Assembly (NCBI RefSeq): GCF_054482595.1 | Contig: NZ_CM137008.1 | DNA: 64,000 bases | Direction: 5' to 3' (one strand) | Part shown: positions 4,944 through 64,000 of the stretch, in pieces | Position numbering within the stretch: position 1 is the stretch's first letter | How the letters are laid out: each line of letters starts with the position of its first letter | Position numbers and translations under genes: made by a program | Notes under the pieces: model-generated | Told to the model about the DNA's origin: nothing | The model's input: the letters and a program-made list of their open reading frames with translations, nothing else | Database searches by the model: none

Positions 4944-7747
<2,804 letters not shown>

Positions 7748-10331: not shown

Positions 10332-10376
10332 TGATTACCTGTTCTGGATCAATAGATGGGCAGTCGGGTGGGCGGA

Positions 10377-10964: not shown

Positions 10965-10965
10965 A

Positions 10966-13387: not shown

Positions 13388-14562
13388 GAAACCCTCCCGA
13401 GCAGAATGCTGGCGTTATTGCCGCCAAAGGCGAAGGAATTGGACAGGATCACCGGACGTGCCAGCGGCTGCGGTTTTTCGATAATGCCGCAGGGTGGCAG
13501 CGTGGGATCGCGTGGCGACAGGCTGAAATCTTGGGCGGGCAGCGGTAAATCACGCTGTAAGATCAACATACTGATTGCTGCTTCGGTAATGCCCGCCGCG
13601 CCCAGCGTGTGGCCGGTCAAATGTTTGGTGGAGCTGCACGGTACGCGTTCGCCAAACAGGGCGTTAACCACCATCGATTCAATCTGGTCGTTGAGTTGCG
13701 TGGCGGTGCCGTGCAGGTTGATATAGCCGACGTCATCTGGCGTAAGCTGCGCATCGGTCAGTGCCTGATTAATGGCGCGGATCGCCCCTTCGCCCTGCGG
13801 ATGCGGGGCCGAAATATGGTAAGCGTCACTCGATTCACCAACGCCCAGCAATGCGATGGGCTGCGGTTCGCGGGTTAATAACATCAGCCCCGCGCCTTCG
13901 CCAATGGTGATACCTGCGCGGTCACGACCGAACGGCTGACATAAAGTTGGCGAGAGCGATTCGAGGCTGTGAAAACCGTTAATCGGCATCCGGCTCAGGG
14001 TGTCTGCGCCACCCACAATGGCGGCATCGACCAGCCCCGTCTCGATAAGCCTGCGCCCGCTGATCATCGCTCTGGCGCTGGAGGAGCAGGCGGTTGAAAG
14101 GGTATAGGCCGGGCCGTCGAGCGCCAGCCAGTGGCTGAGAAAACGCGACGGATCGCCAAGTTCCTGTTGTGCGTAGTGCCATGTGGTGCTCGGCAGCCCG
14201 TGGGTGCGCAGGTTAACGTGCGTGTCGCCTTCATGCAGGCCGGAGGTGCTGGTGCCAAGTACAATCGCGATGCGCTCGCGACCATATTTCGCTATAGCGT
14301 CATCAACCTGCGGCTGGAGCTGCGCCAGCGCCGCCAGCAGGATCTGATTGTTGCGCGAGCGATGCGCAGCGAATTTTTCCGGGATAAGCGGAAGCTCGCC
14401 ATCCACGCCAGCCAGGACCGCCTGCGGATGCCCCTGCAACCAGCCTGCGCGTGGGCGCATTCCGGGGGCGACACCGCGAGCCAGGTTGGCTGCGATTTCG
14501 TCAAGATTATTTCCCAGGGCGTTGATCATGCCGACGGCGGAAATATAAATCATATCAGTCAC
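13384..14562 (-). CDS. apeO: Beta-ketoacyl-ACP synthase (APE cluster KS)
   Basis: 392-aa KS-family protein with conserved Cys (LSTACSSSARA) and C-terminal SNSFAFGGNNA. Confidence 0.85.
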   Translation of the reverse strand: MTDMIYISAVGMINALGNNLDEIAANLARGVAPGMRPRAGWLQGHPQAVLAGVDGELPLIPEKFAAHRSRNNQILLAALAQLQPQVDDAIAKYGRERIAIVLGTSTSGLHEGDTHVNLRTHGLPSTTWHYAQQELGDPSRFLSHWLALDGPAYTLSTACSSSARAMISGRRLIETGLVDAAIVGGADTLSRMPINGFHSLESLSPTLCQPFGRDRAGITIGEGAGLMLLTREPQPIALLGVGESSDAYHISAPHPQGEGAIRAINQALTDAQLTPDDVGYINLHGTATQLNDQIESMVVNALFGERVPCSSTKHLTGHTLGAAGITEAAISMLILQRDLPLPAQDFSLSPRDPTLPPCGIIEKPQPLARPVILSNSFAFGGNNASILLGRVS

Positions 14563-15139
14563 CTAAGTATTGAATGGTGATGTGGTATTTAAAGACATGC
14601 TGTTCAATGCTGATTGGCACGCGTTTGCCCTTGCGATTCAGATAGGTGATTTCCGTGACCAGCTTGCCGCTGGCGTTACGCAGCTCGCGTTTGTCACCGT
14701 TGTCGCGAAGTGTCCAGCCAGTGGGAAGTTGCGGTTGCCAGGCGCTAATCGGCCAGTGGCTGAGCATTACGTCAGCCAGCACCTGACTTGCGGGCGGCAA
14801 CTGTGGGACGACGATGGATTGCTCGGCGCGTAGCCCTTGCGCATCGTAGGTCAACAGAAACAGGCGAATGCCGACCGACGACAGCCCGGCAAGGGTGATT
14901 TTCTGGTCGTCGGCGTTAAGCATCACTAACAGCGACTGGGTTTTGCCGTTGAAGCTGCCGGTCAACAGTTGCTGGGAATTGACGGCGGGTGAAATCCCTG
15001 GTGCCGGCAGCGTGATGCGCGTGCCAGGTTGCAGCCACGCCTGCGGGCGGCCTTCCTGTTCCGGTTGCGAGTGGCTACAGCCGGTGAGGATAAGCGTAGC
15101 GGTCAGGGCGAGCGCTCGCCAGAATGTGGGTTTGATCAT
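14555..15139 (-). CDS. apeN: Lipoprotein, APE-cluster associated
   Basis: Signal peptide with lipobox LTGC; conserved position between the KS and MMPL genes. Confidence 0.7.
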   Translation of the reverse strand: MIKPTFWRALALTATLILTGCSHSQPEQEGRPQAWLQPGTRITLPAPGISPAVNSQQLLTGSFNGKTQSLLVMLNADDQKITLAGLSSVGIRLFLLTYDAQGLRAEQSIVVPQLPPASQVLADVMLSHWPISAWQPQLPTGWTLRDNGDKRELRNASGKLVTEITYLNRKGKRVPISIEQHVFKYHITIQYLGD

Positions 15140-17454
15140 TTTTTTGTTCTCTTTTTATCGGGCATCGCCAGCGGCGAAAGCAGGAAGGCGGTGAAAATAC
15201 CGCTCACCAGCACAATGCCAAAACTGCTGATGGCCTGGGTGGCGCTGAATACCAGCATTCCCAGCGTCAGCAAGGTGGTGAGCATTGCCAGCGTGATCGC
15301 CAGTAGCGAAGTTAATGGTGTACCGCGCGGATTACTGAAAAACAGCGTGTAGTTGATGCCGATGCCAAGCACCAGCACCAGCGCCAGCAGCGAAAAGAGA
15401 TTCACCGCCTGCCCGCTCATCGCCAGCACCGCCAGACCACAACCCAGCGAAAGCACCGAAGGTACAAGGCTGATAAGCCCTTTGCGCCAGCCGAGACGGG
15501 CCACTGCGCCGCAGGCAATCACCGCCAGCGCCACCAGCAACAAGCCGGTTAAGACATAACGGTAAAGCGCGAACAACTCATCAAAGGTGCTTTTGCGATC
15601 AACCCAGGCAATGCCGCAAGGGTAATATGTGGCGATTTCCTGCATCAACGCGCTACTTTTAACCCCTTCAACCGGCACCAGTACGCCGCTTTCGCCGTTT
15701 TCCAGCGTCAGCCACAGCAGACGCCAGCCTTCACTGGCGGGGCTTGCCAGCCATTCATCAACGTTCACTGGCATGGCGTTGAGATCCGGGTTCACTGCCG
15801 TCAGCCCGGCATTTTGCAGCGCTTTTGTTACTGTCGGGGCCGCCGTTTTCAGCAGTTGTAAATCTTCCTCCTGCCGCGCAAGGGAGTTCAGCGGAATGGT
15901 GCGGTAGTTGCTGATAAGCCCCTCTTTTTTCGCATACTCAAGTGAGGCGGTATATTTCTCCAGTCGCCGCAATGTTTGCTGTGGCGAATCGCCGTAAACC
16001 ACAAACCATTTTTGATCGACGCTTTGTCCGGTCAGGGCGGTAATGGCTTTCTCCTGGGTCAGAATATGCTGCGGCAGCGCCTGTAACTGCGAGATATCGT
16101 CATCGACGCGCAGCATTGACATCCCCGCCAGCGAAAACAGCGCCAGCGCGACGGGCAGACCCAGCGACAGTTTTTTATTGCGCCGCCACGCTGCCAGCCA
16201 GCGCAGCATCAGCGCCATCGCCGGAACCGGACGCACCGGCAGGCCACGGCACAGCCACGGATGCCAGAACAGGACGGTCAGACAGGAGGCGCTCAACCCG
16301 ACGGCGGCAAAAATCGCCATCTGGCGAATGCCGGGGAAGGGGGCGAGCATCATAATCAGATATGCCGCCACGGTGGTGAGCAGCGCCAGCAGCAGGGCAT
16401 TGCGTACTTTCGCCAGGCTTTGCCACGGCGAAACGTCGTTGCCGTGCACCATCCGCTCGGTGAGATAATAGAGCGTGTAGTCAGCGGAAATGCCGATAAC
16501 GCTCATGCTCATCACCAGCGTCATCAGGTGTAATTCACCGAAAATCAATAAAGTGGCGACCGTTCCCGCCAGCGCGCCGATGCCGATGGAAATCACGCAA
16601 AGCAGCAACGGGCGCAAAGAGCGGAACACCGCCACAATCAGCAATATCACCCCCAGCAGCGTTGCCACGCCCAGGGTTGAGATATCCTGCTTCGCCTGTT
16701 GGCTGGCGTAATCGCTGTAAAACACCGTGCCGCGCGAAAGCAGCTGCGCCTGCGGGTAACGCGTTTTCAGATCCTTTTCCAGCGTATTCAGGGTCGTGAT
16801 GAGCTGGTGGGTTTGCTGCATATCAAACGACGATCCCGCCAGTTCACCGTGCAGCAGATACCAGTAGTTGCCCTGGGGATCCTGCGTCACCAGCCAGCCG
16901 TCCATCAGCCGCAAACGCTGGCCGTTTTTCGCCATCGCCAGCTGCGAGCCGCGCATTAACATCAGCGGATCGTTTTGCAGCTCCTTGCCGCTTACCCCGG
17001 AGAACGCAGAATAAAGCTGGGAGAGGATCCACTGCGCCTGCGCTTCGCCGCCGTTTTGCAGGCGCGCGCGGGTGTCGGGGTCAATCAGGCCGTTGCGGTG
17101 CTGCCAGAAAAACGCTCCCCACGCTTGCTGGCTGGCGGCATCCATTGGCCCTTTAACGTCGCCGAGCGCAGCGGATTTTTGCAGCAGCGTCAGCCACTCC
17201 TGAGCGACCCTGGGATTAGCCTCTTTACCGGGGCTGACCAGCCACACCAGTTGGCGGTCCAGACGCTGCATAAAGCCGTCATTCAGCGCTGGGGGAATAT
17301 CGCCCATAGCCTGTTTGGGTAACATAGCCAGCACGCTACTGTTCAGCCGTGATTGCGGCAGCAGGATCAGCAACGCCGCCGCCATGACCAGGCAGACTAG
17401 CCCCCATAACAGCGCGGGGCGTTTACTGGGCGGCAAAACGTTGGCGTTCGTCAT
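15136..17454 (-). CDS. apeM: MMPL/RND-family membrane exporter
   Basis: 772-aa protein with two hydrophobic bundles separated by periplasmic domains, typical of MMPL transporters. Confidence 0.8.
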   Translation of the reverse strand: MTNANVLPPSKRPALLWGLVCLVMAAALLILLPQSRLNSSVLAMLPKQAMGDIPPALNDGFMQRLDRQLVWLVSPGKEANPRVAQEWLTLLQKSAALGDVKGPMDAASQQAWGAFFWQHRNGLIDPDTRARLQNGGEAQAQWILSQLYSAFSGVSGKELQNDPLMLMRGSQLAMAKNGQRLRLMDGWLVTQDPQGNYWYLLHGELAGSSFDMQQTHQLITTLNTLEKDLKTRYPQAQLLSRGTVFYSDYASQQAKQDISTLGVATLLGVILLIVAVFRSLRPLLLCVISIGIGALAGTVATLLIFGELHLMTLVMSMSVIGISADYTLYYLTERMVHGNDVSPWQSLAKVRNALLLALLTTVAAYLIMMLAPFPGIRQMAIFAAVGLSASCLTVLFWHPWLCRGLPVRPVPAMALMLRWLAAWRRNKKLSLGLPVALALFSLAGMSMLRVDDDISQLQALPQHILTQEKAITALTGQSVDQKWFVVYGDSPQQTLRRLEKYTASLEYAKKEGLISNYRTIPLNSLARQEEDLQLLKTAAPTVTKALQNAGLTAVNPDLNAMPVNVDEWLASPASEGWRLLWLTLENGESGVLVPVEGVKSSALMQEIATYYPCGIAWVDRKSTFDELFALYRYVLTGLLLVALAVIACGAVARLGWRKGLISLVPSVLSLGCGLAVLAMSGQAVNLFSLLALVLVLGIGINYTLFFSNPRGTPLTSLLAITLAMLTTLLTLGMLVFSATQAISSFGIVLVSGIFTAFLLSPLAMPDKKRTKK

Positions 17455-18028
17455 CGGTCAGTTGCGCTGGCGTCAGTTGATGTTGGGTAAGAGCAATATC
17501 GGTGCGATCGCCCTGTTTATCATTAAGTTGAATGCTCTCCAGATAGGTTTTCCCGGCGAGATCGATGGTGTTGAAAATTTTATCCAGCGGCGTGGTGGTC
17601 GGCGTCAGGCGCAGCGTCCAGCGGCCTTCGCCTTTGTCAGCAAATTCGACGCGGAAGTTTTGTTCCAGCACTTTGCGATCGGCCTGGAACAGCGCGCGCA
17701 GCAGGTGGTTAAACTGGAACATCTGCGGGTTGTTTTCTGCCGTGATGATTTGCGGCGGCTGACCGTTGATCACCTGCACCATGCGTTTATCATCCAGCAA
17801 TAGCTGCATGGGGAACGGTGAGGTTTGATCCCACAATAACCCCTGGTCGCGGGCGATCAACATCTGACCCTGAGATCGCAGCGGCTGCGGCAGATCTTTA
17901 ATCGTCCGGGTTTGATCAAAATGGGCGCGGATCACCGGTTGTTCGGTAAAGCGTTGCTGAAGATCGTCCAGGGTCAGGGCGCTCACAAACGGGCTAATCA
18001 GCAGCGCCAGCAGCGGTAAAAATTTCAT
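17423..18028 (-). CDS. apeL: LolA-like outer-membrane lipoprotein carrier
   Basis: 201-aa secreted protein with signal peptide (MKFLPLLALLISPFVSA) and LolA-fold-like length/composition. Confidence 0.7.
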   Translation of the reverse strand: MKFLPLLALLISPFVSALTLDDLQQRFTEQPVIRAHFDQTRTIKDLPQPLRSQGQMLIARDQGLLWDQTSPFPMQLLLDDKRMVQVINGQPPQIITAENNPQMFQFNHLLRALFQADRKVLEQNFRVEFADKGEGRWTLRLTPTTTPLDKIFNTIDLAGKTYLESIQLNDKQGDRTDIALTQHQLTPAQLTDDERQRFAAQ

Positions 18029-18447
18029 GGTTTGACTCCCATGCGTTCAAACAGAATATCGGGGCTGACAAAGCACAGTTCGCGACTTTGCTCGTCGACC
18101 GCGACCTGAATGGTGTATCCGGTGGTGGCGCGTTTGCCCGTTTCGGCATCGAAAATCTGATAGCCAATCCGCAGACGGTTTTCGAACTCTTCGATATGCG
18201 CACGCACGCGGATGCGTTGCTCAAAGGTGAGGGCGTGGCGATATTTCACCCGCGCATCGACCACTGGCCACAAATAACCGGACTCTTTCATCTGCCGATA
18301 GCCGTAATTGAACTGGTTGAGCAGCGCCTCGCGGGCCACTTCAAAGTAGCGAAAATAGTTACCGTGCCAGGCCACGCCCATCATATCGACGTCGTGAAAG
18401 GGAATGGTCAGCTCGACTTCAGCGGTAAATCGGGGATCGTTAAGCAC
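18025..18447 (-). CDS. apeK: Hotdog-fold acyl thioesterase (4HBT-like)
   Basis: 140-aa protein resembling the YbgC/4-hydroxybenzoyl-CoA thioesterase family. Confidence 0.75.
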   Translation of the reverse strand: MLNDPRFTAEVELTIPFHDVDMMGVAWHGNYFRYFEVAREALLNQFNYGYRQMKESGYLWPVVDARVKYRHALTFEQRIRVRAHIEEFENRLRIGYQIFDAETGKRATTGYTIQVAVDEQSRELCFVSPDILFERMGVKP

Positions 18448-18450
18448 CCT

Positions 18451-20127
18451 TTACTCCTTGTCCTGAATTTCCGGCAGTTGCCAGAAATCGAAAAAATTAA
18501 ACCAGTCGAGGGGCGACTGGAGCGCGTAATGTTCCAGACGCGCGGCGTAGTGGTCGATAGCGTTTTGCAGCGCCTGCTGGCGTTCGCCACGCGGCAGTTG
18601 CAGCGGGTCGGCAAAGCTTTCGCAGTGAATATGCAGCTTGCCGTGCTGGCGTAGGGCGAAAATCAGATTCACTGGGCAGCGCAAAATAGAGGCGAGAATA
18701 AACGGCCCCTGTGGGAAGGGCGCAGGCTGGCCCATAAACGGACTCCAGCAGACGCGCCAGTCGCCGCCGCGTTGCGGGGTGACGGCGATGCGGTCACCGA
18801 CAATCGCCACCCATTCGCCGTTATCCAGCTTCTCTTTCAGCAGGATGGCGGTTTCTGGGCCGATATCTGTTACCGGCATCAGGTTAATGCCTGCCTGAGG
18901 AGCCATCTCCTGCATTATCTGTTTAAAGCGTTGGGCGTTTTCGCTAAACACCAGCGCGTTAATGGTTTTGTAGCCCTGAATTTTTGCCAGCGCCCGGCAC
19001 ACTTCCACATCGCCAAGATGCGAGGCCAGCAGCAATTTGCCGCGCGGATCGCGGACGTCAAGCGCCGCTTCTGCGCCTGGCGCAAACAGCACATCACGCC
19101 CCAGTTGTAGCTCGCCGCGCCAGCTGGCGATTTTGTCGAGCATGGCATTACCGAAACGTAGAAAGTGCTGATAGCTGTTGAGTTTTGCCGCCTGTGGTTG
19201 ATGCTGTCGTACACGGGCGAGCCAGTCTTGCGACGCTTTGCGCGCACGAGAAGCAGTGAGCCAGTAGACGCCCACCACCGGGTAAAGCAGCGCGCTAAAC
19301 GCCGTTCTTCCCAGCAGACGCCAGACCAGCAGCATCAGGCGCATTCCCCATAATCCTTTCACTTCACTCTGCCGCGCCCAGTGGCTGGAAGAGCGGCGCA
19401 TCAGCAGTGAAGGAATACGCGGTAACATGCCGAAAAATAGACGCGTGTGCATGAGCGAGATGCGGACGTTATCTTTCAGGGCATCAAAATGCGAAAGCCC
19501 GTCCAGTGGATAGGTGACGCGGGTCGGCACGAAATAGCTGGTGTTTCCCTGCCAGTAGAGGCGCACCATCACTTCAGTGTCGAAATCCATCCGCTTGCCG
19601 ATGGTGGCGTGTTTTGCCAGTTGCAGCGTTGGCGCAACCGGATAAACGCGAAAGCCGCACATGCTGTCTTTCAGTTGCAGGGAGAGCGTTTCGATCCATA
19701 CCCAGACGTGGGTGACCCAGCGCCCGTAAAGCCGTGAGCGGGGGATGGAGTCATCGTAAATTGGCTGGCCGGAGATCAGCGCCGCAGGGTGTTGTTCAGC
19801 GACTGCCAGCAGTTTGGGGATATCTTCAATCGCATGTTGACCGTCAGCATCCACCTGCACTGCATGGCTGAACCCTGCGTCTGCCGCTGCCTGTAAGCCA
19901 CGCATCACTGCCGCGCCTTTACCTGCGTTTTCTGCTAAGCGAATTAAGGTCACGCCAGGCTGTTCGCTAACCAGATTATCCAGTTGCTGTTGCGTGGCGG
20001 CATCGCTGCCGTCGTCCACCACAATACAGGGGAGATTAAATGGCTTAAGACGCGCCAGCACGCCCGGCATCATCGCGCCGTGGTTATAGCAGGGGATCAA
20101 CACGCAGGGAGAAAAGTTTACCGACAT
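18451..20127 (-). CDS. apeJ: Fusion of family-2 glycosyltransferase and LpxL/HtrB-like lipid acyltransferase
   Basis: N-terminus has the GT2 signature (IPCYN...VVDDGSD); C-terminal half resembles lauroyl/myristoyl lipid A acyltransferases. Confidence 0.75.
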   Translation of the reverse strand: MSVNFSPCVLIPCYNHGAMMPGVLARLKPFNLPCIVVDDGSDAATQQQLDNLVSEQPGVTLIRLAENAGKGAAVMRGLQAAADAGFSHAVQVDADGQHAIEDIPKLLAVAEQHPAALISGQPIYDDSIPRSRLYGRWVTHVWVWIETLSLQLKDSMCGFRVYPVAPTLQLAKHATIGKRMDFDTEVMVRLYWQGNTSYFVPTRVTYPLDGLSHFDALKDNVRISLMHTRLFFGMLPRIPSLLMRRSSSHWARQSEVKGLWGMRLMLLVWRLLGRTAFSALLYPVVGVYWLTASRARKASQDWLARVRQHQPQAAKLNSYQHFLRFGNAMLDKIASWRGELQLGRDVLFAPGAEAALDVRDPRGKLLLASHLGDVEVCRALAKIQGYKTINALVFSENAQRFKQIMQEMAPQAGINLMPVTDIGPETAILLKEKLDNGEWVAIVGDRIAVTPQRGGDWRVCWSPFMGQPAPFPQGPFILASILRCPVNLIFALRQHGKLHIHCESFADPLQLPRGERQQALQNAIDHYAARLEHYALQSPLDWFNFFDFWQLPEIQDKE

Positions 20128-20471
20128 AGGCGGATCTTCCCGCTACTGGCGGTGTGGCGGGCGTCACCGTCGTGACGCTGATAGCTAAAGCTCAGAATCT
20201 GGCGTTCTTCCTGCCAGTTAAGCGCGAGCGTGACGCGGTTTTCCGGCAGCAACGGAGACTGGAATTTTATGTTCTGAATGGAGTGAAAACGCCAGCCAGG
20301 CGCGAGCAGATTGAGCGCGTAGCTCATCGCCCAGTCGATTTGCGCAACTCCTGGGAGTAATGGTTGCACGGCAAAATGACCGCGAAACCAGAACAGATCC
20401 GCCCTGAGATGCAGAACAATTTCAAGGTGATTCGTTTGTGCCTGATGGCGCTCGATTTCATGGGGCTTCAT
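20118..20471 (-). CDS. apeI: Hotdog-fold dehydratase (FabA/FabZ-like)
   Basis: FabZ-like core (FRGHFAVQPLLPGV); start placed at ATG 20471 (MKPHEIERH) with AGGAG 7 nt upstream; the ORF track begins at a GTG 30 nt further upstream. Confidence 0.75.
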   Translation of the reverse strand: MKPHEIERHQAQTNHLEIVLHLRADLFWFRGHFAVQPLLPGVAQIDWAMSYALNLLAPGWRFHSIQNIKFQSPLLPENRVTLALNWQEERQILSFSYQRHDGDARHTASSGKIRLCR

Positions 20472-21819
20472 GAAATAACTCCTGTAATTGCGCATAGACA
20501 CGCTTGTTCATACTGTTTACTGGCATTTCATCAATAACGCGCCAGTAACGCGGAATAGCAACTGGCTCCAGCGTCGGGCGCAGTAAACGCCGCCAGGTCA
20601 TTTCCTGGCTATGCCCGCCGCCGTTCTGCCATTGCAGATGAGCTTCGTCATCCAGCACCAGCAAAACGCCTATGCTCTGACGCCCGCCGCGCGTAACGGG
20701 AACTGCCGCCGCCTCGCGAATGCCGTCCAGCGCCAGTAGACGTTGTTCTACTTCCTGGAGTGAAATACGTTTTTCTTCAATCTTAACGATGCGCCCACGA
20801 CGCCCCATCAGATGGAACTGACCATCTTCGCTAAGCTGTAAGATATCGTCGAGTAACAGGCCGTTATCTTCCGCTATCAGCGGTGAAAAGAGGCGAAAGG
20901 CATCGCCTTCGGCTTGGAACTGCATACCTGGGAGGGGTAGCCAGCGGCGTTGCTCTTGTTCGCGGTAACGCCAGGCGATGACGCCGGTTTCCGTGCTGCC
21001 GTAGATTTCATCAGGCCAGACGCGCAGCCAGCTTGCGGTGTGTTGTACATCCTGCCACGGCAGCTCACCGCCAGCAGAGAGAAGCACCTGAACGGGTGGC
21101 GGAGAAAGCTGGGTATCCAGGCGCTTCAAAAATGCCGGGCTGCTGATGAAGATATAGCGATGCTGATGACTCAACGCGGCAAACTGTTCGACATACCAGA
21201 GCATGGCGGCGTGCAGCGGTAATCCCAACGCCATGGGCAGGAAAACACGAAAAGTCAGGCCGTACAAATGCTGCGGCAATACGGAACCGACGACACGACA
21301 ACCCGCCAGACGTGCGCCTAATCGTTCAGCCAGCAGTTCTGCTTCACGATCCAGCAAATGAACAGGTTTAATCACCCGTTTCGGCTGTCCCGTGGAACCG
21401 GAGGTAAACAGCTCGATAAAAGCCTCTGGCGCTATAGCGGCAAAGGTGAAGGATTGTGTCGCGACTTGTGGGGAACTTGCTACCAACAGCCATGAACCTT
21501 GCCAGTTAAGTTCGCTGTCGCTAAGCACACCATCGAACAGTTCACGTTGCTCGTTAAGCTGGATGACACGGTTATGCCCCGGAAGCACCGGTGTTTTTCC
21601 GGCGTGTAGCGTGGCGAGCAGGGCAACGATAAACAGATAGCTGTTCTCAAAGCACAGCGCCCAGCGTTCACCCGGCTGTTGCTGCAAGCGGCAGATAAGT
21701 TGCGCGACATCGTGACGCAAATCGCCCAGCGTCCAGGTGCTTTCGTCCAGCCACGCAATGGGCGTGTCATCAGGGCGTGGCGCAGTCAGCCAGCGTGCAA
21801 GCGGTAAGGTCTGCTTCAT
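20458..21819 (-). CDS. apeH: AMP-dependent acyl/aryl-ACP ligase (adenylating starter-unit enzyme)
   Basis: ANL-superfamily motifs (TSGSTGQPK, YGSTETG); start placed at ATG 21819 forming an ATGA overlap with the upstream gene. Confidence 0.8.
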   Translation of the reverse strand: MKQTLPLARWLTAPRPDDTPIAWLDESTWTLGDLRHDVAQLICRLQQQPGERWALCFENSYLFIVALLATLHAGKTPVLPGHNRVIQLNEQRELFDGVLSDSELNWQGSWLLVASSPQVATQSFTFAAIAPEAFIELFTSGSTGQPKRVIKPVHLLDREAELLAERLGARLAGCRVVGSVLPQHLYGLTFRVFLPMALGLPLHAAMLWYVEQFAALSHQHRYIFISSPAFLKRLDTQLSPPPVQVLLSAGGELPWQDVQHTASWLRVWPDEIYGSTETGVIAWRYREQEQRRWLPLPGMQFQAEGDAFRLFSPLIAEDNGLLLDDILQLSEDGQFHLMGRRGRIVKIEEKRISLQEVEQRLLALDGIREAAAVPVTRGGRQSIGVLLVLDDEAHLQWQNGGGHSQEMTWRRLLRPTLEPVAIPRYWRVIDEMPVNSMNKRVYAQLQELFHEAP

Positions 21820-22397
21820 GCGCGATCTCTTTTCATCACCTGACGGCGCACCAGCCATTCACCAGCCATTAATGTTCCCATCAACAAATAAGCAATCATG
21901 CCGTTCCAGGCGGTCCATAACGACATATCGGCATAAAGCGCGGTAAAGAGGGCAATTCCACCGTTAATGATGAAAAAGCCGCACCAGATTTGCGTGACGT
22001 GGCGGGTATAGCGCACGCCCTTTTCCGGGAGGTCTGGCTCCTGCAACCGCGCCAGCCGCTCAACTATCGGCATTGCCGACCACAGCGAACCGCCAAAAAC
22101 CGCCAGCATGACCGCGTTAACCACTACCGGGTAAAACAGCAGTAGCTGGTGCGTTTTCAACATAAAGCTGGCGACACATAATGCGATGCCCACGACAGCG
22201 ACGAGTTGCGTGACGGCTTGTAAAGGCCCCGCCTGGCGACGGGTCTGGCGCAGACGCAACAAAAGCAGCAACGCCATTAGCGGTAACAGCCAGTGCAGGC
22301 CGTTATGCGCTAAGCCAAACCAAATCACAAACGGCCAGGCGAGCAGCAATAATCCAGTCAGCAGCTTAATCATCGGTAGCGAGCGAATGCCCGACAT
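21816..22397 (-). CDS. apeG: Integral membrane protein, APE-cluster associated
   Basis: 193-aa hydrophobic protein with several predicted TM helices; conserved position. Confidence 0.6.
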   Translation of the reverse strand: MSGIRSLPMIKLLTGLLLLAWPFVIWFGLAHNGLHWLLPLMALLLLLRLRQTRRQAGPLQAVTQLVAVVGIALCVASFMLKTHQLLLFYPVVVNAVMLAVFGGSLWSAMPIVERLARLQEPDLPEKGVRYTRHVTQIWCGFFIINGGIALFTALYADMSLWTAWNGMIAYLLMGTLMAGEWLVRRQVMKRDRA

Positions 22398-22401
22398 CAG
22401 A

Positions 22402-22653
22402 TCAGGCTTCTTGTAGCAGGCGTTCTACAGCCTCGACGACATCCTGGACTGTACGCACGGCTTTAAACTCTTCCGGCTTGATTTTCTTACCGGTTTTCTT
22501 TTGCAGGTGCACAATCATGTCAACGGCGTCGATGCTGTCCAGTTCCAGATCTTCGTACAGGCGCGCTTCAGGTTTGATGTCCTGCGGATCGATTTCAAAC
22601 AGCTTAACCAGCAGGGCTGAGACTTCCTGATAGACGGTTTGTTGTTCTGTCAT
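22402..22653 (-). CDS. apeF: Acyl carrier protein
   Basis: 83-aa acidic protein with phosphopantetheine attachment motif LELDSIDAVDM. Confidence 0.85.
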   Translation of the reverse strand: MTEQQTVYQEVSALLVKLFEIDPQDIKPEARLYEDLELDSIDAVDMIVHLQKKTGKKIKPEEFKAVRTVQDVVEAVERLLQEA

Positions 22654-22664
22654 GATGGCTTTCC

Positions 22665-22922
22665 TCAGGCACGTTGCGCAGCAATGAAAGAGGCCAGAGT
22701 GGCGACGGAGAAAAAGTGCTGACGCATCTCTTCGCTTTCCGCAGAGAGCACGATGCCGTACTCATTTTTTACTGCCAGTCCCAGTTCCAGGGCATCGATA
22801 GAGTCCAGCCCTAAACCGTCGCCAAACAGCGGCGCGTCGGTATCGATATCATCAGGCGTCAACTCGTCCAGATTGAGGGTGCTGATGATGAGGTTTTTAA
22901 TTTCCAGATAAAGCGCTTGCAT
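22665..22922 (-). CDS. apeE: Acyl carrier protein
   Basis: 85-aa protein with attachment motif LGLDSIDALEL; tandem with a second ACP. Confidence 0.85.
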   Translation of the reverse strand: MQALYLEIKNLIISTLNLDELTPDDIDTDAPLFGDGLGLDSIDALELGLAVKNEYGIVLSAESEEMRQHFFSVATLASFIAAQRA

Positions 22923-23736
22923 TATTTATTCCTGAGAGAGGTAAACAACCTTGTTGTAATTGAAGCAAAAGATGCCGGTTTAACTGCCTTGCTGCCAGCG
23001 CCGGTTCTTGTGAAGTTGCATCGTAAAATTTATTGATTTCAACCCGACCATGGACTGCAACCGTAAAAAACGGCCGGTCAGGTGGAACGTCATACCATTT
23101 ACTTTGTTTATCCAGCAGATGCTCGCTACAGCCGATCGTCACGATGCGTAAATCGCTGGCACAGCGCACGGCAATATTCGCCGCCCCGCGCTGCAGCGTC
23201 ATTTTTTCACCGGGCTTCGTTCGCGTGCCTTCGGGGAAAATCAGGATAGTGTCACCCTGTGCCAGTCGCTGTTGGCAGCGGGGTAACAGGGTTTCAGCTT
23301 CGCTGTTGATTAAATAATCTGCCGCCCGCACGACGCCGCCAAGAAAAGGATTTTTTAACAGCGCGCTTTTCACCAGGCAGTCAGTTTCTGGCATGACTGA
23401 CGCCAGCAGCACGTAATCGATCAGCGTGGGATGATTGGCTACGACGAGGCAACCGCGTTCCTGACGTAAAATTTCAGCGCCATCAATACGATAATCCAGC
23501 ACGCCAAGCCCTTTCGCGACAGTTAAAAACAGGCGAAAACTGGCGGCAATGCTGCGACGCGCCAAACGACGGCGGCGGGAAGTATCCCACACCAAAACTA
23601 ACAATATGTTAAACCACACGACAGAAAGCAGCAGGCCGCCGAGACCAAACAGGGCAAAACATAACCCGGTCATGACCAGTCGCCAGGTCCACTCCAGACG
23701 TGACAGCAGCTTACTCATCCACGGCTCCAGCGCCAC
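22897..23736 (-). CDS. apeD: Lysophospholipid (PlsC-like) acyltransferase
   Basis: N-terminal TM segment followed by an acyltransferase core with the HPTLIDY and FPEGTR motif pair. Confidence 0.75.
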   Translation of the reverse strand: MALEPWMSKLLSRLEWTWRLVMTGLCFALFGLGGLLLSVVWFNILLVLVWDTSRRRRLARRSIAASFRLFLTVAKGLGVLDYRIDGAEILRQERGCLVVANHPTLIDYVLLASVMPETDCLVKSALLKNPFLGGVVRAADYLINSEAETLLPRCQQRLAQGDTILIFPEGTRTKPGEKMTLQRGAANIAVRCASDLRIVTIGCSEHLLDKQSKWYDVPPDRPFFTVAVHGRVEINKFYDATSQEPALAARQLNRHLLLQLQQGCLPLSGINNASALSGN

Positions 23737-24437
23737 TGTACGCGCTCGCCAGGCAGTGAAAATGTGTCCGCATTTTGTAAATAGTGCTGTAAAAACAACA
23801 TGCTTTGCGGCAGTGTTGTTTCATTACCCGCAATGGCTGACTGCGTTTCACATTGCCACTCATCGCCAGCTTCAATCACCAGCGCGACGGCGTACGGCCA
23901 GGTCGGCATTTCTGCGGGCAGTTGTGGATGATAGAACTCAGGCAGAAAGCCATCAAAATCGACCATCAGCACGCGCTGGTATCCCGCTTGTAACAGGCTA
24001 AGCACTTCACACAAACCTTGCTGGAAAGTGTCGCGACCAGCAGAAAGCGATGACGAAACGATCGGCTGTTTGGCCGCAATGGTCAGGTTACCCACGGAAG
24101 AGTTGTGTACTGAAAGTGCAAAGTCGGTCGGAGAAAGCGCCTGTTCGGTTGCCAGTGCATGAACAATGCGGTAATTGCGCTCCAGTTCGCCATGACGACT
24201 GGTATACAAAACGGCGTCTGGCTGATGGCGGCGTAGCATTGCCAGACCGCATTCAACAGCCAGTTTGCTGCCTGAACTGAGGCGGCGGGCGGTCATCATT
24301 GGCAGTTCACTTAATTTTGCCAACGGCGCGGCAGGGTCAATCGCCCACGGCTGGCGCGACCATGCTTGCCATTGCTGCGCTTCGCTAAGTCCAGGCGCCA
24401 GTGCCTGCCAGTCGGTAATATTTAATGTAAATTTCAT
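23715..24437 (-). CDS. apeC: Ketosynthase-like chain-length-factor protein (no intact KS catalytic triad seen)
   Basis: 240-aa KS-related protein lacking an obvious active-site Cys context; start placed at ATG 24437 (MKFTLNI). Confidence 0.65.
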   Translation of the reverse strand: MKFTLNITDWQALAPGLSEAQQWQAWSRQPWAIDPAAPLAKLSELPMMTARRLSSGSKLAVECGLAMLRRHQPDAVLYTSRHGELERNYRIVHALATEQALSPTDFALSVHNSSVGNLTIAAKQPIVSSSLSAGRDTFQQGLCEVLSLLQAGYQRVLMVDFDGFLPEFYHPQLPAEMPTWPYAVALVIEAGDEWQCETQSAIAGNETTLPQSMLFLQHYLQNADTFSLPGERVQWRWSRG

Positions 24438-24477
24438 CAACGCGCGCCCGCGGTAAACCAAAATTATTAAGTGACGA

Positions 24478-25545
24478 TTATTTCTTTTGGCATATCAAAA
24501 GTGTATGCCCAACGCCTAAATTATCGTGGCGCTCTGCTACCTGGAATCCTGCTTTATTCAGATAGTCGTAAAATTTCTCTGCACTATAGAAACGGCTGTT
24601 ACCGTTTGCCATGCAGGTAAAATAAAGTGAGGACGCGTTCAGGCTAAATGATGCTGCTTCAAACCGCTGCGCATCCCAGAACAACTCCATGATGCAAACT
24701 TTTGCGCCAGGCTTCATTACGCTGGCAATTTTGCTGAGTATGCTAATTATTTGTTCGGGTGAAAAACAGTCTAAAAATTGGCTCATCCACCAGATATCAG
24801 CCTCGCCCGGTAATGGGGCATCGCTTAGCATATCCACCGCATGGAAATCTATGCGATCAGAAAAACCTGCATTCGCGATATTTTCTTTCGCTAGTACGAT
24901 TTGTTGTGGCAGATCTAATAACGTCACGGCGATGTTTTCATTGTATTTGCAGCAACGCAAAGCCCACTTACCCGTATTGCCGCCTACATCGTACAATGTT
25001 GTGGGGTTGTTGGCGAATACATAAGGCAGTGCGGCGTTAAATGCGCCATCTGAATAGTAATGATCAAACGCAAACCAGCTTTCACGAGCGGCGTCTGGTA
25101 ATTGCGAAAGTGCCGGATATATCGTCGACCAGTCGCCAAATACTTTTAACCCGGAAGGTTTTCCTTCATTGAGTGAATCGGCGAGGAAGAAGAGCCCCTG
25201 GTAACAGACATCCTGGGTGAAATCCATATTCACGCGAGTCATAGTGTCATGCAGGAGGTAATGACCGATTTTCGCCAGGTAATAAATTCCCTCTTTACAG
25301 GTAATAATTCGCCCGCTTAAGCCCATATCTAACAGAACGCTGGCAGCATATTCGTTGATATGGCTATGTTCGGTGATATCAGCCAGCGTTGCGCCATGTT
25401 TGCCTTGCCGATCCAGATATGAAAGTACACCCGCATTACGTAGGCAGAGTGCTGTTTGAAAAAGCATAGGGGCAAAGGCAATGCGTTGAGCTTCGGTAAT
25501 CGCATCCAGTGCGCTAAGAGAATCCTGTTCGTACATGTTGGGCAC
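24478..25545 (-). CDS. apeB: SAM-dependent methyltransferase (O-methyltransferase-like)
   Basis: Class I methyltransferase fold (VGGNTGKWA...LLDLP); an alternative ATG start lies at 25536. Confidence 0.75.
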   Translation of the reverse strand: MPNMYEQDSLSALDAITEAQRIAFAPMLFQTALCLRNAGVLSYLDRQGKHGATLADITEHSHINEYAASVLLDMGLSGRIITCKEGIYYLAKIGHYLLHDTMTRVNMDFTQDVCYQGLFFLADSLNEGKPSGLKVFGDWSTIYPALSQLPDAARESWFAFDHYYSDGAFNAALPYVFANNPTTLYDVGGNTGKWALRCCKYNENIAVTLLDLPQQIVLAKENIANAGFSDRIDFHAVDMLSDAPLPGEADIWWMSQFLDCFSPEQIISILSKIASVMKPGAKVCIMELFWDAQRFEAASFSLNASSLYFTCMANGNSRFYSAEKFYDYLNKAGFQVAERHDNLGVGHTLLICQKK

Positions 25546-25604
25546 AACCTGTTAAGAGGGAATTAAATTATTATCGGACCGCAACGGCCCGACTTTAGGA
25601 AGAA

Positions 25605-39632: not shown

Positions 39633-40736
39633 ATGAACATAAAGGGTAAAGCGTTACTGGCAGGATGTATCGCGCTGGCATTCAGCAATATGGCTCTGGC
39701 AGAAGATATTAAAGTCGCGGTCGTGGGCGCAATGTCCGGTCCGGTTGCGCAGTACGGTGACCAGGAGTTTACCGGCGCAGAGCAGGCGGTTGCGGATATC
39801 AACGCTAAAGGCGGCATTAAAGGCAACAAACTGCAAATCGTAAAATATGACGATGCCTGTGACCCGAAACAGGCGGTTGCGGTGGCGAACAAAGTCGTTA
39901 ACGACGGCATTAAATACGTGATTGGTCACCTCTGTTCTTCATCAACGCAGCCTGCGTCTGACATCTACGAAGACGAAGGCATTTTAATGATCACCCCAGC
40001 GGCAACCGCGCCGGAGCTGACCGCCCGTGGCTATCAGCTGATCCTGCGCACCACCGGCCTGGACTCCGACCAGGGGCCGACGGCGGCGAAATATATTCTT
40101 GCGAAAGTGAAACCGCAGCGTATTGCTATCGTTCACGACAAACAGCAATACGGCGAAGGTCTGGCGCGAGCGGTGCAGGACGGCCTGAAGAAAGGCAATG
40201 CTAACGTGGTGTTCTTTGATGGTATCACCGCCGGGGAAAAAGATTTCTCAACGCTGGTAGCGCGTCTGAAGAAAGAGAATATCGACTTCGTTTACTACGG
40301 CGGTTATCACCCGGAAATGGGGCAAATCCTGCGTCAGGCACGCGCGGCAGGGCTGAAAACTCAGTTTATGGGGCCGGAAGGTGTGGCTAACGTTTCGCTG
40401 TCTAACATTGCGGGCGAATCAGCGGAAGGGCTGCTGGTGACCAAGCCGAAGAACTACGATCAGGTTCCGGCGAACAAACCCATTGTTGATGCGATCAAAG
40501 CGAAAAAACAGGACCCAAGCGGCGCATTCGTTTGGACCACCTACGCCGCGCTACAATCTTTGCAGGCGGGCCTGAATCAGTCTGACGATCCGGCTGAGAT
40601 CGCCAAATACCTGAAAGCGAACTCGGTTGATACCGTGATGGGTCCGCTGACGTGGGATGAGAAAGGTGATCTGAAAGGCTTTGAGTTCGGTGTGTTTGAC
40701 TGGCACGCCAACGGCACAGCGACCGATGCGAAGTAA
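39633..40736 (+). CDS. livJ: Leu/Ile/Val-binding periplasmic protein LivJ
   Basis: 367-aa protein starting [23 protein letters not shown] (signal peptide); the ORF track begins 57 nt further upstream. Confidence 0.95.
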
Positions 40737-40794
40737 TTGTTAATCGGCAACTTTGGGTTGCCGCCAAATTGCTAATATAGAGTACGTTGCTTCA

Positions 40795-40895
<101 letters not shown>

Positions 40896-40935
40896 ATTTC
40901 TCGTTGGTCATCACTTTTGAAATCAAACTTGACGA

Positions 40936-55407: not shown

Positions 55408-55824
55408 ATGAAAGCAAAATACGTGATTCTCTCTGTACTTAATAAACAAGAACTCTTCTATTTAAAATCAAGATACAAAGAAATGAAGAAACTTGCTAAT
55501 AAGCATGAAGTCTCTCTCGTAGAACAAAATTTCATTGATGCTATTATTTCAATGGTGGGTTATTGCTCTTTGGGGTTTGGGTTGGTAAGTATAGTTAATG
55601 GGATATTGCTTGTATTCTCATTTTTTCAGGATAACATGTTGAAAAGTTTTTTTCTGTCTTCAATCGTTAGTATTGCCATGTTCGCTATTCTTAGCATACA
55701 CAGAAAACTGGATACTAAATTCTCTTACCAATTATGCCTCAAAATGTTTTATCTTAAAATTAAGTTATTCTGTTATTGTATTCCTGCACCAGTTGTAGTT
55801 CCTGATATATTCATTAATAATTGA
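55408..55824 (+). CDS. Hypothetical small membrane protein (138 aa, two to three TM helices)
   Basis: AT-rich ORF with strong Shine-Dalgarno (AAGGGGG) before the ATG; hydrophobic segments MVGYCSLGFGLVSIVNGILLVFSFF and IVSIAMFAILSI; no family recognised. Confidence 0.55.
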   Translation: MKAKYVILSVLNKQELFYLKSRYKEMKKLANKHEVSLVEQNFIDAIISMVGYCSLGFGLVSIVNGILLVFSFFQDNMLKSFFLSSIVSIAMFAILSIHRKLDTKFSYQLCLKMFYLKIKLFCYCIPAPVVVPDIFINN

Positions 55825-55836
55825 TGTGGCATATGA

Positions 55837-56685
55837 TTATTGAGGCCATGTTTTATCCTCAAATTTGTATTTTTCATCATAAAATGTAACCTTGAATTTT
55901 TTTACAGTAGAACTAATTTGTATGATTTTTAAAGGGGTAGGTTTTAATGAGAATTTATTTTTAAAATCAACTGATGTGTAATGAAATAATCGTCCTGTAC
56001 CAGGTCTATTTCCTAATGAAGGACGAATCAATCTATTATACTTAGGTACGATTTTCATGCCTGAATATCCACCATATGCAGTAATCGAAAAGTCCACGAT
56101 GCTGTATGCATAATCAGCAGAATTAATATCACCTCCCATTTTTTTTGCTATTACTCTGTAGAGTTCACGTATTAGACCTGAATCATACTCGTTAAAAAAT
56201 AAAGGTGATAAGCTTTCATAAAAATTATTCGCCCCATGAGCAACTAATGTGACGCCTATACCTTTTATTCGGTTTGAATGCACTACCTTACCAAATTTCA
56301 ACGCGCCAACCCCGCCTACGACCTGTCCTACAGATGCAACAATATCGAAACTTAAGTTCACATATTTTATCAAACCATGTTCTTCGAAAATATCAGTAGT
56401 GATATATTTATCATAATTTCCTTGTCTGAAAAGTTGATATTCTTTTCTTGCTGTTTCTGACTCCATTTTTAATTCATTGATAAGTCGTGTTTTTTCATTG
56501 ATGTCATATGAAGAATTGAATCTGTGAGTAATATCATTAATAGTATTTTCTATTTCTTGCAGATACTCGAATCTAACTAATGGGGACTCAATAAAAAATG
56601 TTGAAGCAAGTGTTGCGGTTTTGCGTAAAGAAAGGGCATATTTGTTAAGATCATATCGTAAATGACTTATAGCTGCTGTACCCAT
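55837..56685 (-). CDS. Hypothetical protein (282 aa) with a glycine-zipper segment
   Basis: AT-rich ORF convergent with the 138-aa gene, 12 nt between stops; central motif VASVGQVVGGVGALKFG; no recognisable catalytic motif; weak Shine-Dalgarno. Confidence 0.5.
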   Translation of the reverse strand: MGTAAISHLRYDLNKYALSLRKTATLASTFFIESPLVRFEYLQEIENTINDITHRFNSSYDINEKTRLINELKMESETARKEYQLFRQGNYDKYITTDIFEEHGLIKYVNLSFDIVASVGQVVGGVGALKFGKVVHSNRIKGIGVTLVAHGANNFYESLSPLFFNEYDSGLIRELYRVIAKKMGGDINSADYAYSIVDFSITAYGGYSGMKIVPKYNRLIRPSLGNRPGTGRLFHYTSVDFKNKFSLKPTPLKIIQISSTVKKFKVTFYDEKYKFEDKTWPQ

Positions 56686-56895: not shown

Positions 56896-57384
56896 TTACT
56901 TCACCCGCGCCATATAATACGCATCGACATATTCACCATTACGCAATGCGTACTTCTTACCAGTCCCTTCAATTTCAAAGCCGTATTTTTTATAGACCTT
57001 AATTGCTGGCGCGTTATCGACGAACACCGTTAGCTCGATACGATCTACCCGCAACCAGTTGTCGCACATTTCAATCATCTCTCGCATAAGGGCGCTGGCG
57101 ACGCCGCGATTCTTCCAACGGGCGTCGACACAGATACCAAAATCGGCAACATGACTGCGGCGTGGGCGCTGTTGCACGTCAATGGTGAGGTGACCCACGA
57201 CGGTTCCATCAATACAGGCAACTAACTGTTTGATGCCGGGACGATCGGCGAGTCGCTCCTGCCACATATGATCGGAAGGATGAGGCACCTGTAGTGTGTT
57301 GCAATACACCTCCGGCTGGGCGTGAATCTGCCTGATGGCCTCGTAATCGCGCGTTTCAGCATGGCGTATCACTATCTCACTCAT
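56896..57384 (-). CDS. yhhY: GNAT-family N-acetyltransferase YhhY
   Basis: 162-aa protein starting MSEIVIRHAE with AAGAGGA upstream; the ORF track begins 93 nt further upstream. Confidence 0.9.
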   Translation of the reverse strand: MSEIVIRHAETRDYEAIRQIHAQPEVYCNTLQVPHPSDHMWQERLADRPGIKQLVACIDGTVVGHLTIDVQQRPRRSHVADFGICVDARWKNRGVASALMREMIEMCDNWLRVDRIELTVFVDNAPAIKVYKKYGFEIEGTGKKYALRNGEYVDAYYMARVK

Positions 57385-57482
57385 TCCTTTGTCCTCTTTG
57401 GGGTAAATGTCCCTTTCAACATCATTGACTTTCGAATGCGAGTCAAATGCATTTTTTTTGCAAAAAGTGTTGGACAAGTGCG

Positions 57483-57504
57483 AATGAGAATGATTATTAT
57501 TGTC
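57483..57504 (+). promoter_or_regulatory. Fur box overlapping the ryhB promoter
   Basis: AATGAGAATGATTATTATTGTC matches the Fur consensus GATAATGATAATCATTATC and sits immediately upstream of the ryhB start. Confidence 0.8.
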
Positions 57505-57506
57505 TC

Positions 57507-57598
57507 GCGATCAGGAAGACCCTCGCGGAGAACCTGAAAGCACGACATTGCTCACATTGCTTCCAGTATTACTTAGCCAGCCGGGTGCTGGCTTTTTT
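57507..57598 (+). ncRNA. ryhB: Iron-starvation small RNA RyhB
   Basis: Sequence GCGATCAGGAAGACCCTCGCGGAGAACCTGAAAGCACGACATTGCTCACATTGCTTCCAGTATTACTTAGCCAGCCGGGTGCTGGCTTTTTTTTT matches the RyhB sequence as I recall it, including its terminator. Confidence 0.95.
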
Positions 57599-57718
57599 TT
57601 TGATCTTTCGTTCTCAATTTATCCTCGGGAAGTGCTTGTGTTCGTTATGCGCACTCCAGTAGGAACCACGTCCGCTTTGCGCTAAGGTGTAAATAACCAC
57701 CTTAAAAAGGACGAAATC

Positions 57719-58756
57719 ATGGTCATCAACTGCGCCTTTATTGGCTTCGGCAAAAGCACCACCCGTTACCATCTGCCGTATGTACTTAACCGCAAGGATA
57801 GCTGGCATGTCGCGCATATTTTTCGTCGCCATGCGAAGCCGGAAGAACAGGCTCCCATTTACTCTCATATCCATTTCACCAGCGATCTCGACGAAGTGCT
57901 AAACGATCCCGATGTTAAGCTGGTTGTGGTCTGCACCCACGCGGACAGCCATTTCGAGTACGCGAAACGCGCGCTGGAAGCCGGGAAAAATGTGCTGGTC
58001 GAAAAACCGTTCACTCCGACACTTGCGCAGGCGAAAGAGCTGTTTGCACTGGCGAAAAGCAAAGGGCTGACCGTCACGCCATATCAGAATCGTCGCTTTG
58101 ATTCCTGCTTCCTGACAGCGAAAAAAGCGATTGAAAGCGGCAAGCTGGGAGAGATTGTCGAAGTGGAAAGCCATTTTGACTATTACCGCCCGGTGGCAGA
58201 AACCAAACCTGGGCTGCCGCAGGATGGCGCGTTCTATGGCCTTGGTGTGCATACGATGGACCAGATTATTTCTCTGTTCGGTCGCCCGGATCACGTCGCT
58301 TATGACATCCGCAGCCTGCGCAATAAAGCCAATCCTGACGATACTTTCGAAGCGCAACTGTTTTATGGCGATCTAAAAGCCATCGTCAAAACCAGCCATC
58401 TGGTGAAAATCGATTATCCGAAATTTATCGTTCACGGTAAGAAAGGTTCGTTTATTAAATACGGTATCGACCAGCAGGAAACCAGCCTGAAGGCTAATAT
58501 TATGCCGGGCGAACCGGGATTCGCAGCGGATGATTCGGTCGGTGTGCTGGAGTATGTCAATGACGAGGGCGTGACGGTCAGAGAAGAGATGAAGCCGGAG
58601 ATGGGCGATTACGGGCGCGTTTATGATGCGTTGTATCAAACCATCACCCACGGTGCGCCAAATTACGTCAAGGAATCTGAAGTTCTTACGAATCTGGAAA
58701 TCCTTGAACGCGGATTCGAGCAAGCCTCTCCCTCCACCGTGACTCTCGCGAAGTAA
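57719..58756 (+). CDS. yhhX: Gfo/Idh/MocA-family NAD(P)-dependent oxidoreductase YhhX
   Basis: 345-aa protein with N-terminal Rossmann fold (INCAFIGFGKS). Confidence 0.9.
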   Translation: MVINCAFIGFGKSTTRYHLPYVLNRKDSWHVAHIFRRHAKPEEQAPIYSHIHFTSDLDEVLNDPDVKLVVVCTHADSHFEYAKRALEAGKNVLVEKPFTPTLAQAKELFALAKSKGLTVTPYQNRRFDSCFLTAKKAIESGKLGEIVEVESHFDYYRPVAETKPGLPQDGAFYGLGVHTMDQIISLFGRPDHVAYDIRSLRNKANPDDTFEAQLFYGDLKAIVKTSHLVKIDYPKFIVHGKKGSFIKYGIDQQETSLKANIMPGEPGFAADDSVGVLEYVNDEGVTVREEMKPEMGDYGRVYDALYQTITHGAPNYVKESEVLTNLEILERGFEQASPSTVTLAK

Positions 58757-58878: not shown

Positions 58879-59574
58879 ATGATCTACTTACGCAAAGCAA
58901 ATGAACGTGGTCATGCAAATCATGGCTGGCTGGACTCCTGGCATACTTTCTCTTTTGCCAACTATTACGATCCGAACTTTATGGGCTTCTCCGCGCTGCG
59001 CGTGATTAACGACGACGTGATTGAAGCAGGGCAGGGCTTCGGCACTCACCCGCATAAAGATATGGAAATTTTGACCTACGTGCTGGAAGGTACTGTTGAG
59101 CACCAGGACAGCATGGGCAATAAAGAGCAGGTTCCGGCGGGCGAGTTCCAGATTATGAGTGCGGGTACGGGTATTCGTCACTCAGAGTACAACCCAAGCA
59201 GCACCGAGCGTCTGCATCTGTATCAGATCTGGATCATGCCTGAAGAAAACGGTATTACGCCGCGTTATGAACAGCGTCGCTTCGATGCCGTGCAGGGCAA
59301 ACAACTGGTGCTTTCGCCAGATGCGCGAGATGGTTCATTGAAAGTGCATCAGGATATGGAACTGTACCGCTGGGCGTTGCTGAAAGATGAGCAGTCGGTG
59401 CATCAGATTGCCGCTGAACGCCGCGTCTGGATCCAGGTGGTGAAAGGCAATGTCACCATTAACGGCGTGAAAGCCTCGACCAGCGATGGTCTGGCAATCT
59501 GGGATGAGCAGGCAATCTCCATCCATGCGGATAGCGACAGCGAAGTGTTACTGTTCGATCTGCCGCCGGTTTAA
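58879..59574 (+). CDS. yhhW: Pirin-like quercetin 2,3-dioxygenase YhhW
   Basis: 231-aa bicupin with metal-binding His residues (HPHKDMEI). Confidence 0.9.
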   Translation: MIYLRKANERGHANHGWLDSWHTFSFANYYDPNFMGFSALRVINDDVIEAGQGFGTHPHKDMEILTYVLEGTVEHQDSMGNKEQVPAGEFQIMSAGTGIRHSEYNPSSTERLHLYQIWIMPEENGITPRYEQRRFDAVQGKQLVLSPDARDGSLKVHQDMELYRWALLKDEQSVHQIAAERRVWIQVVKGNVTINGVKASTSDGLAIWDEQAISIHADSDSEVLLFDLPPV

Positions 59575-62942: not shown

Positions 62943-64000
62943 ATGGAAAAGCACGCAGCTGAATTGCTTTTACAGCGGATGTTAGGAAATACCACCGCTA
63001 CTTTCAGGGAAGGGCAATGGGAAGCCATAGACGCGGTGGTGAACCAACGGCGAAAACTGCTGGTTGTCCAACGCACTGGCTGGGGGAAAAGTGCTGTGTA
63101 CTTCATCGCCAGTAAAATCTTCCGCGATCGCGGCGCTGGCCCGACAATTATCATCTCTCCTTTGCTTGCCCTGATGCGTAACCAGGTTGCCGCCGCTGAA
63201 CGGTTAGGTATTACGGCTGAAACGTTGAATTCTACAAACAGAGAAGAATGGCAGCGCATTAGCGATAAGTTGCTGCAAGGTGAGGTCGATTGCTTGCTGG
63301 TTTCCCCGGAACGTTTGGCAAACCAGGACTTTATCGAAACGGTTTTATATCCTATAGCCGATCGTATTGGCTTGCTTGTGGTCGACGAGGCGCACTGCAT
63401 CTCTGATTGGGGCCACGATTTTCGCCCGGATTACCGACGTATATTAGATATTTTGCGCCAACTACCTGCGAATACCCCTGTTCTGGGTACAACCGCGACA
63501 GCGAATAACCGTGTCGTTGAGGATATCCGTCAGCAATTGGGTGACATTGTGATTCAGCGTGGAACGCTGGCTCGCGAAAGTTTGGCGCTTGATGCCTTAG
63601 TCTTAGGTGAACAGTCATCCCGTCTGGCATGGTTAGCAACGGTTATCCCTCAGTTTTCCAAATCGGGAATTGTTTATACCCTGACTACTCGCGATGCCGA
63701 ACTTGTCGCCGAGTGGTTAAGGAAAAATGGTATCAGTGCATTTGCTTACTACAGCGGCGTGACTTGCGAAGGCGCGGAAGATTCTAATACTGCCAGGGAA
63801 TATCTGGAGCAGGCGTTGCTGGCAAATAAAATTAAAGTGCTGGTTGCGACAACGGCGCTGGGAATGGGCTTTGACAAACCGGATTTGGGGTTTGTTATTC
63901 ATTACCAGATGCCAGGTTCGATAGTTGGTTACTACCAACAGGTGGGGCGTGCCGGTCGCGGTATCGATTCTGCTGTTGGCATACTGCTTTGCGGCAGTGA
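62943..64000 (+). CDS. RecQ-family DEAH-box DNA helicase paralogue (5' portion; continues beyond window)
   Basis: Open frame to the window edge; GGAG Shine-Dalgarno 6 nt before the ATG; helicase motifs I (TGWGKSAVY), II (VVDEAHCISDWGHDFRP), III (TATA) and VI (QQVGRAGR); sequence clearly differs from housekeeping RecQ. Confidence 0.75.
   Translation, partial: MEKHAAELLLQRMLGNTTATFREGQWEAIDAVVNQRRKLLVVQRTGWGKSAVYFIASKIFRDRGAGPTIIISPLLALMRNQVAAAERLGITAETLNSTNREEWQRISDKLLQGEVDCLLVSPERLANQDFIETVLYPIADRIGLLVVDEAHCISDWGHDFRPDYRRILDILRQLPANTPVLGTTATANNRVVEDIRQQLGDIVIQRGTLARESLALDALVLGEQSSRLAWLATVIPQFSKSGIVYTLTTRDAELVAEWLRKNGISAFAYYSGVTCEGAEDSNTAREYLEQALLANKIKVLVATTALGMGFDKPDLGFVIHYQMPGSIVGYYQQVGRAGRGIDSAVGILLCGS

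Follow-up and report, generated by a model that had tools for sequence, protein, structure and literature searches.

RyhB is a small RNA (sRNA) of Escherichia coli that also goes by the name SraI. Under iron limitation it represses many mRNAs of non-essential iron proteins by pairing at or near the RBS; the pairing is assisted by Hfq and both RNAs are degraded by RNase E (PMC4666370). The mRNAs shiA and cirA are activated by RyhB, and the overall outcome has been described as an "iron-sparing" response (PMC4666370). RyhB itself is repressed by Fe-Fur (PMC2189734). The K-12 RNA is induced when iron is limiting or fur is deleted, depends on Hfq for its stability, and acts through target decay coupled to RNase E (PMC4666370, PMC4509938, PMC2189734). 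The Fur site of the K-12 gene, predicted at 25.2 bits, is centred at −15 and overlapped by weaker sites, was bound by Fur in a gel shift, and belongs to a cluster ranked among the strongest of the genome (Chen et al., PMC2189734). The RNA has a length of 95 nt and ends in a 9-U tail (Morita et al., PMC4509938). Its Hfq-binding module is made up of the terminator hairpin, a long U-tail (at least 7 U's as the criterion), and an upstream U-rich stretch (PMC4509938). In the K-12 MG1655 record, ryhB (b4451) appears as an ncRNA feature of 95 nt between yhhX and yhhY (NC_000913.3 3580922-3581016).

Two further systems were used for comparison. The RyhB homologues of other Enterobacteriaceae, such as Klebsiella pneumoniae, are likewise Fur-repressed, Hfq-dependent, iron-sparing sRNAs with the same conserved core; the Klebsiella promoter is only 72.4% identical to the E. 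coli promoter, and the neighbour there is an ORF with a bactofilin domain, not yhhX (PMC3423075). SgrS, an sRNA that also binds Hfq, has a leaky intrinsic terminator and is followed by a co-oriented gene, setA (PMC4509938). Co-transcription has been demonstrated for sgrS and setA (PMC4509938), whereas for ryhB and yhhX it is only inferred.

The stretch of DNA analyzed here, 64 kb in its full length and called the window below, was the reverse complement of NZ_CP007592.1:4090599-4154598 and 100% identical to it end to end (megablast). This record belongs to E. coli O157:H16 strain Santai, which originated from duck rectum in China. When the window was scanned with Rfam 15, RyhB (RF00057) was the only family at its gathering score. 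The match was located at 57536-57600 (+), reached 83.1 bits (gathering score 55, E 3.6e-14), and covered positions 1-67 of 67 of the covariance model, i.e., the full model. In a permissive scan of the whole window (E ≤ 0.1), RyhB was the sole family with E < 1e-3, and neither another sRNA nor a RyhB paralogue was found above threshold. No tRNA genes were detected in the 64 kb with ARAGORN. From its score and E-value, the ryhB feature is real and far beyond chance.

The interval 57380-57720 was aligned with the corresponding interval of K-12 MG1655, and the position of the transcript was derived from this alignment (Table 1). Not a single difference was found over 57453-57624, a stretch that takes in both promoter hexamers, the Fur box, ryhB in its full length, and 23 nt past its end. 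The two loci thus share hexamers, Fur operator, 95-nt transcript, terminator, and the yhhY and yhhX flanks, and they differ solely in the spacers and further out. Four differences were counted in the aligned interval, all outside the identical stretch: in the yhhY-ryhB spacer, a G/A substitution (about 57434) and one additional T within a run near 57452, as well as one substitution and one extra base near 57625-57630 (ryhB-yhhX spacer). Judged by its sequence, the locus is almost certainly the canonical E. coli ryhB, which encodes a Fur-repressed, Hfq-dependent, trans-acting iron-sparing sRNA. No evidence of substance spoke against this reading.

In a consensus scan, the ryhB promoter scored 10/12, and no second promoter-like site was found within 57300-57800. 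The transcription start, G57507, was placed at the first nucleotide of the ncRNA as annotated in K-12. Fur boxes were searched for with the 19-bp consensus GATAATGATAATCATTATC over the whole window on both strands. A 16/19 match occurred once in the 64 kb, at 57486-57504, and this was the best site (16/19 on the − strand, 15/19 on the + strand); a second register at 57480-57498 matched at 14/19. Together, the two registers span the −10 hexamer, and their downstream edge lies 3 nt from +1. By alignment, promoter and operator have the same sequence as in K-12, and binding of Fur to the operator would be expected by transfer from the identical K-12 site. In promoter and neighbour, ryhB of the window is of the E. 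coli type and not of the Klebsiella type.

The transcript ends in a stem-loop, AGCCAGC-CGGGU-GCUGGCU (57575-57593), with a 7-bp stem, five GC pairs, and a 5-nt loop, and a run of nine T's (57593-57601) lies exactly at the transcript 3' end, in agreement with the published 95-nt, 9-U RyhB (PMC4509938). This was the one terminator-like site found in 57300-57800 by consensus scan. The sequence-only reading had described an intact, full RyhB sequence with its terminator and an upstream Fur box, lying between yhhY and yhhX. All of this was borne out, the position by concordant ORFs, RefSeq annotation, and Pfam matches. The Rfam scan that it had proposed as a check returned the full RF00057 model well above threshold, and a mismatch to RyhB on alignment, which it had named as grounds for refutation, was found at none of the 95 positions. 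The interval that it had given (57483-57598) held the right element and was slightly off at the boundaries: its start falls 3 nt into the Fur cluster, the −35 hexamer is not included, and the last 3 nt of the U-tail are missing. These differences are trivial.

The target-pairing core of RyhB, GACAUUGCU, was perfectly complementary to AGCAAUGUC, which spans the start codon of K-12 sodB from −4 to +5 (duplex prediction with the K-12 sodB leader). In the predicted fold, this segment sits both in and beside the loop of the central hairpin. For the full-length RyhB-sodB duplex, an energy of −34.8 kcal/mol was obtained, and 43 of 500 shuffled RyhB sequences paired as well, so that this value does not discriminate. 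The informative part of the pairing is the known 9-nt core alone, and it confirms a known site and is not independent proof. Folding energy likewise gave no signal (−24.1 kcal/mol for the 95-nt RyhB, z = −0.67 against dinucleotide shuffles). With fold and duplex energies both unexceptional, thermodynamics alone would not have flagged RyhB. Such a lack of thermodynamic distinctiveness is common among small RNAs.

Since the sequence is identical, the results published for K-12 were carried over to this locus; expression in response to iron, binding by Fur, dependence on Hfq, and the set of targets are accordingly expectations transferred from K-12 experiments. With iron plentiful, Fe(II)-Fur would occupy the operator that overlaps the −10 hexamer, and the sigma-70 promoter would be blocked. 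With iron scarce, Fur would leave the operator, and transcription would start at G57507 and stop at the hairpin and nine-U terminator, giving an RNA of about 95 nt. Hfq would be expected to contact the terminator hairpin, the U-tail, and the AU-rich stretch preceding them. The central region (about nt 38-46) would then pair at the translation-initiation regions of mRNAs whose iron-containing products are dispensable, among them sodB, sdhCDAB, and bfr; ribosome binding would thereby be blocked, and both RNAs would undergo RNase E-dependent decay. A few targets (shiA, cirA) would be activated instead.

Table 1. Positions of the ryhB elements and of the flanking genes in the window
Feature	Position	Strand	Details
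yhhY	56896-57384	−	162 aa, GNAT N-acetyltransferase; ORF list, RefSeq, Pfam Acetyltransf_1 (1.6e-18); divergent upstream neighbour
ryhB sigma-70 promoter	57471-57500	+	−35 TGGACA 57471-57476, 18-nt spacer, −10 TATTAT 57495-57500
Fur operator	57480-57504	.	overlapping 19-bp registers 6 bp apart
RyhB sRNA	57507-57601	+	95 nt per K-12 b4451; 95/95 identity; RF00057
Target-pairing core	57544-57552	+	RyhB nt 38-46, GACAUUGCU
Rho-independent terminator / Hfq-binding module	57575-57601	+	terminator scan, MFE fold, Rfam consensus structure
yhhX	57719-58756	+	345 aa, GFO/IDH/MocA-family oxidoreductase; ORF list, annotation, Pfam GFO_IDH_MocA(_C)
yhhW	58879-59574	+	downstream of yhhX

Whether the copy could be decayed and non-functional, or the Rfam match a product of chance, was weighed against the full-model E-value, the promoter, operator, RNA, and terminator with zero differences from the functional K-12 gene, and the recurrence of the sequence at 99% identity or more in 5358 E. 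coli genomes. Nothing was found in favour of such a reading; it has practically no probability left, and it was discarded on the grounds of the K-12 identity and the Rfam score. Hardly more credible is a small protein encoded in the region, either on the RyhB strand, which would make RyhB a dual-function RNA, or antisense to it. Three mechanically called ORFs speak for it: 57447-57662 (+, 71 aa), 57500-57685 (+, 61 aa), and 57381-57548 (−, 55 aa), the last of which lies opposite the 5' half of ryhB with its stop overlapping the yhhY start (ATGA). However, both plus-strand ORFs begin upstream of 57507 and are therefore not contained in RyhB, and their tails are altered relative to K-12 by the indel near 57630. 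In K-12, the antisense ORF has a length of just 34 aa and another end owing to the 1-nt difference in the T-run near 57452, for which reason it was judged a chance ORF. Given these indels, conservation of the ORF frames is lacking already between E. coli strains, whereas the sequence of the RNA does not vary. As every ORF that overlaps ryhB either begins before +1 or is disrupted or altered by indels in K-12, the small-ORF and dual-function reading was rejected.

A cis-acting role is also conceivable, in which ryhB would mainly be a Fur-regulated leader of a ryhB-yhhX operon formed by terminator read-through, and the sRNA its attenuated 5' product. The gene yhhX is indeed on the same strand, 117 nt past the RyhB U-tail, and a simple consensus scan revealed no other sigma-70-like promoter between the terminator and yhhX. 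On plasmids, about 20% read-through of the ryhB terminator has been reported, and co-transcription of yhhX was suggested there, not demonstrated (PMC4509938). In RNA-seq data, iron limitation raised yhhX RNA in the wild type, and no such rise was seen in a deletion strain that had lost the ryhB promoter as well (PMC8896160). Yet read-through of this kind would add to the trans role of RyhB, not replace it. About 80% of transcripts end at the hairpin and nine-U terminator, with a larger share under stress, and 3'-extended RyhB is bound poorly by Hfq (PMC4509938), whereas the trans-targets of RyhB have been validated extensively (PMC4666370). Moreover, in Klebsiella ryhB is not adjacent to yhhX (PMC3423075), so the linkage of the two genes is not conserved with the RNA. 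A mainly cis-acting ryhB is thus very unlikely, and the trans-acting sRNA remains the preferred reading. A more modest version, compatible with it, stands at slightly better than an even chance: the Fur-controlled ryhB promoter may also drive yhhX by partial terminator read-through. YhhX would then belong, so far unnoticed, to the iron-starvation regulon, and its output would depend on how stress modulates the efficiency of termination. This has already been put forward in the literature (PMC4509938, PMC8896160); if true, it fills in detail and opens no new topic.

In everything that can be tested on sequence, the locus agreed with RyhB, namely in covariance-model score, identity to the type member, Fur box, terminator and U-tail, seed complementarity, and synteny. 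The gene order yhhY/ryhB/yhhX/yhhW is that of K-12 and is followed by gntR, gntK, and gntU. The 95-nt RyhB was found in 5424 of the 5426 complete E. coli genomes (at least 99% identity in 5358), always on the chromosome and usually in a single copy. The analysis itself showed the identity of the sequence, the anatomy of promoter, operator, and terminator, the synteny, a nearly universal conservation within E. coli, and the complementarity to sodB. The gene is a known, ordinary sRNA gene of E. coli that has already been fully described, and it holds no novelty; the sequence-only reading had called it well known and unremarkable in itself, which fits its identity to the described K-12 gene. It serves as a sanity check and as a note on annotation: the strain has an intact iron-sparing regulator, no new biology is added, and the gene anchors the window to the E. 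coli chromosome, at the ggt-yhhY-ryhB-yhhX-gntRKU region of strain Santai.

The expectation that annotation based on ORFs would miss the gene was also correct. In the RefSeq record of strain Santai (NZ_CP007592.1), nothing is annotated between yhhX and yhhY, and the locus tags skip CH99_RS20205 between yhhX (RS20200) and yhhY (RS20210). Twelve further complete genomes of E. coli were sampled from across the ranking, and in all 12 the annotation under the RyhB match was "none", unlike the K-12 MG1655 record, which carries an ncRNA feature for ryhB. Routine RefSeq/PGAP annotation thus leaves a well-studied sRNA unmarked in the Santai record and in the sampled genomes.

The window spans a sugar island with PTS and FGGY-kinase genes, followed by nik, liv, ugp, and ggt, and reaches gntRKU. 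The island (1-4945) lies beside nikR and comprises a GntR regulator, PTS IIA-IIB-IIC components (galactitol-type), an FGGY-kinase, and an HPr-like protein. For the initial 4.9 kb of the window, no match was obtained in the compared stretch of strain DSM 103246, where hicA-hicB and yhhJ/rbbA lie beside nikR, and only about 1637 of 5426 genomes contain 80% or more of the initial 6 kb. In the livJ-panM spacer (40736-40933), a REP-like element was seen with a sub-threshold naRNA4 match at 40789-40826 (−) (40.4 bits, gathering score 59.5); strain DSM 103246 has an ataR-ataT toxin-antitoxin pair at this position, which the window does not have.

Closer to ryhB, the region 55408-56685 holds a DUF4225 gene and an adjacent hypothetical ORF of 138 aa on the opposite strand, while K-12 has yhhZ ("putative endonuclease") beside yhhY. 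The DUF4225 gene is marked as frameshifted in RefSeq and corresponds to a 282-aa ORF at 55837-56685 (−) with a match to Pfam PF13988 (3e-36); for the 138-aa ORF, no Pfam match was obtained. The locus looks variable and may be a cassette of the toxin/immunity type. At the other end of the window, a gene annotated as a RecQ-family ATP-dependent DNA helicase (62943-64000) directly follows gntU and runs past the window end. A gene cluster of about 15 kb was located between acpT and yhhT (approximately 10200-25600). It is annotated with beta-ketoacyl synthases, a chain-length factor, acyl carrier proteins, an MMPL transporter, a LolA-like protein, a glycosyltransferase, and a methyltransferase, and it resembles a lipid biosynthesis cluster of the aryl-polyene type.
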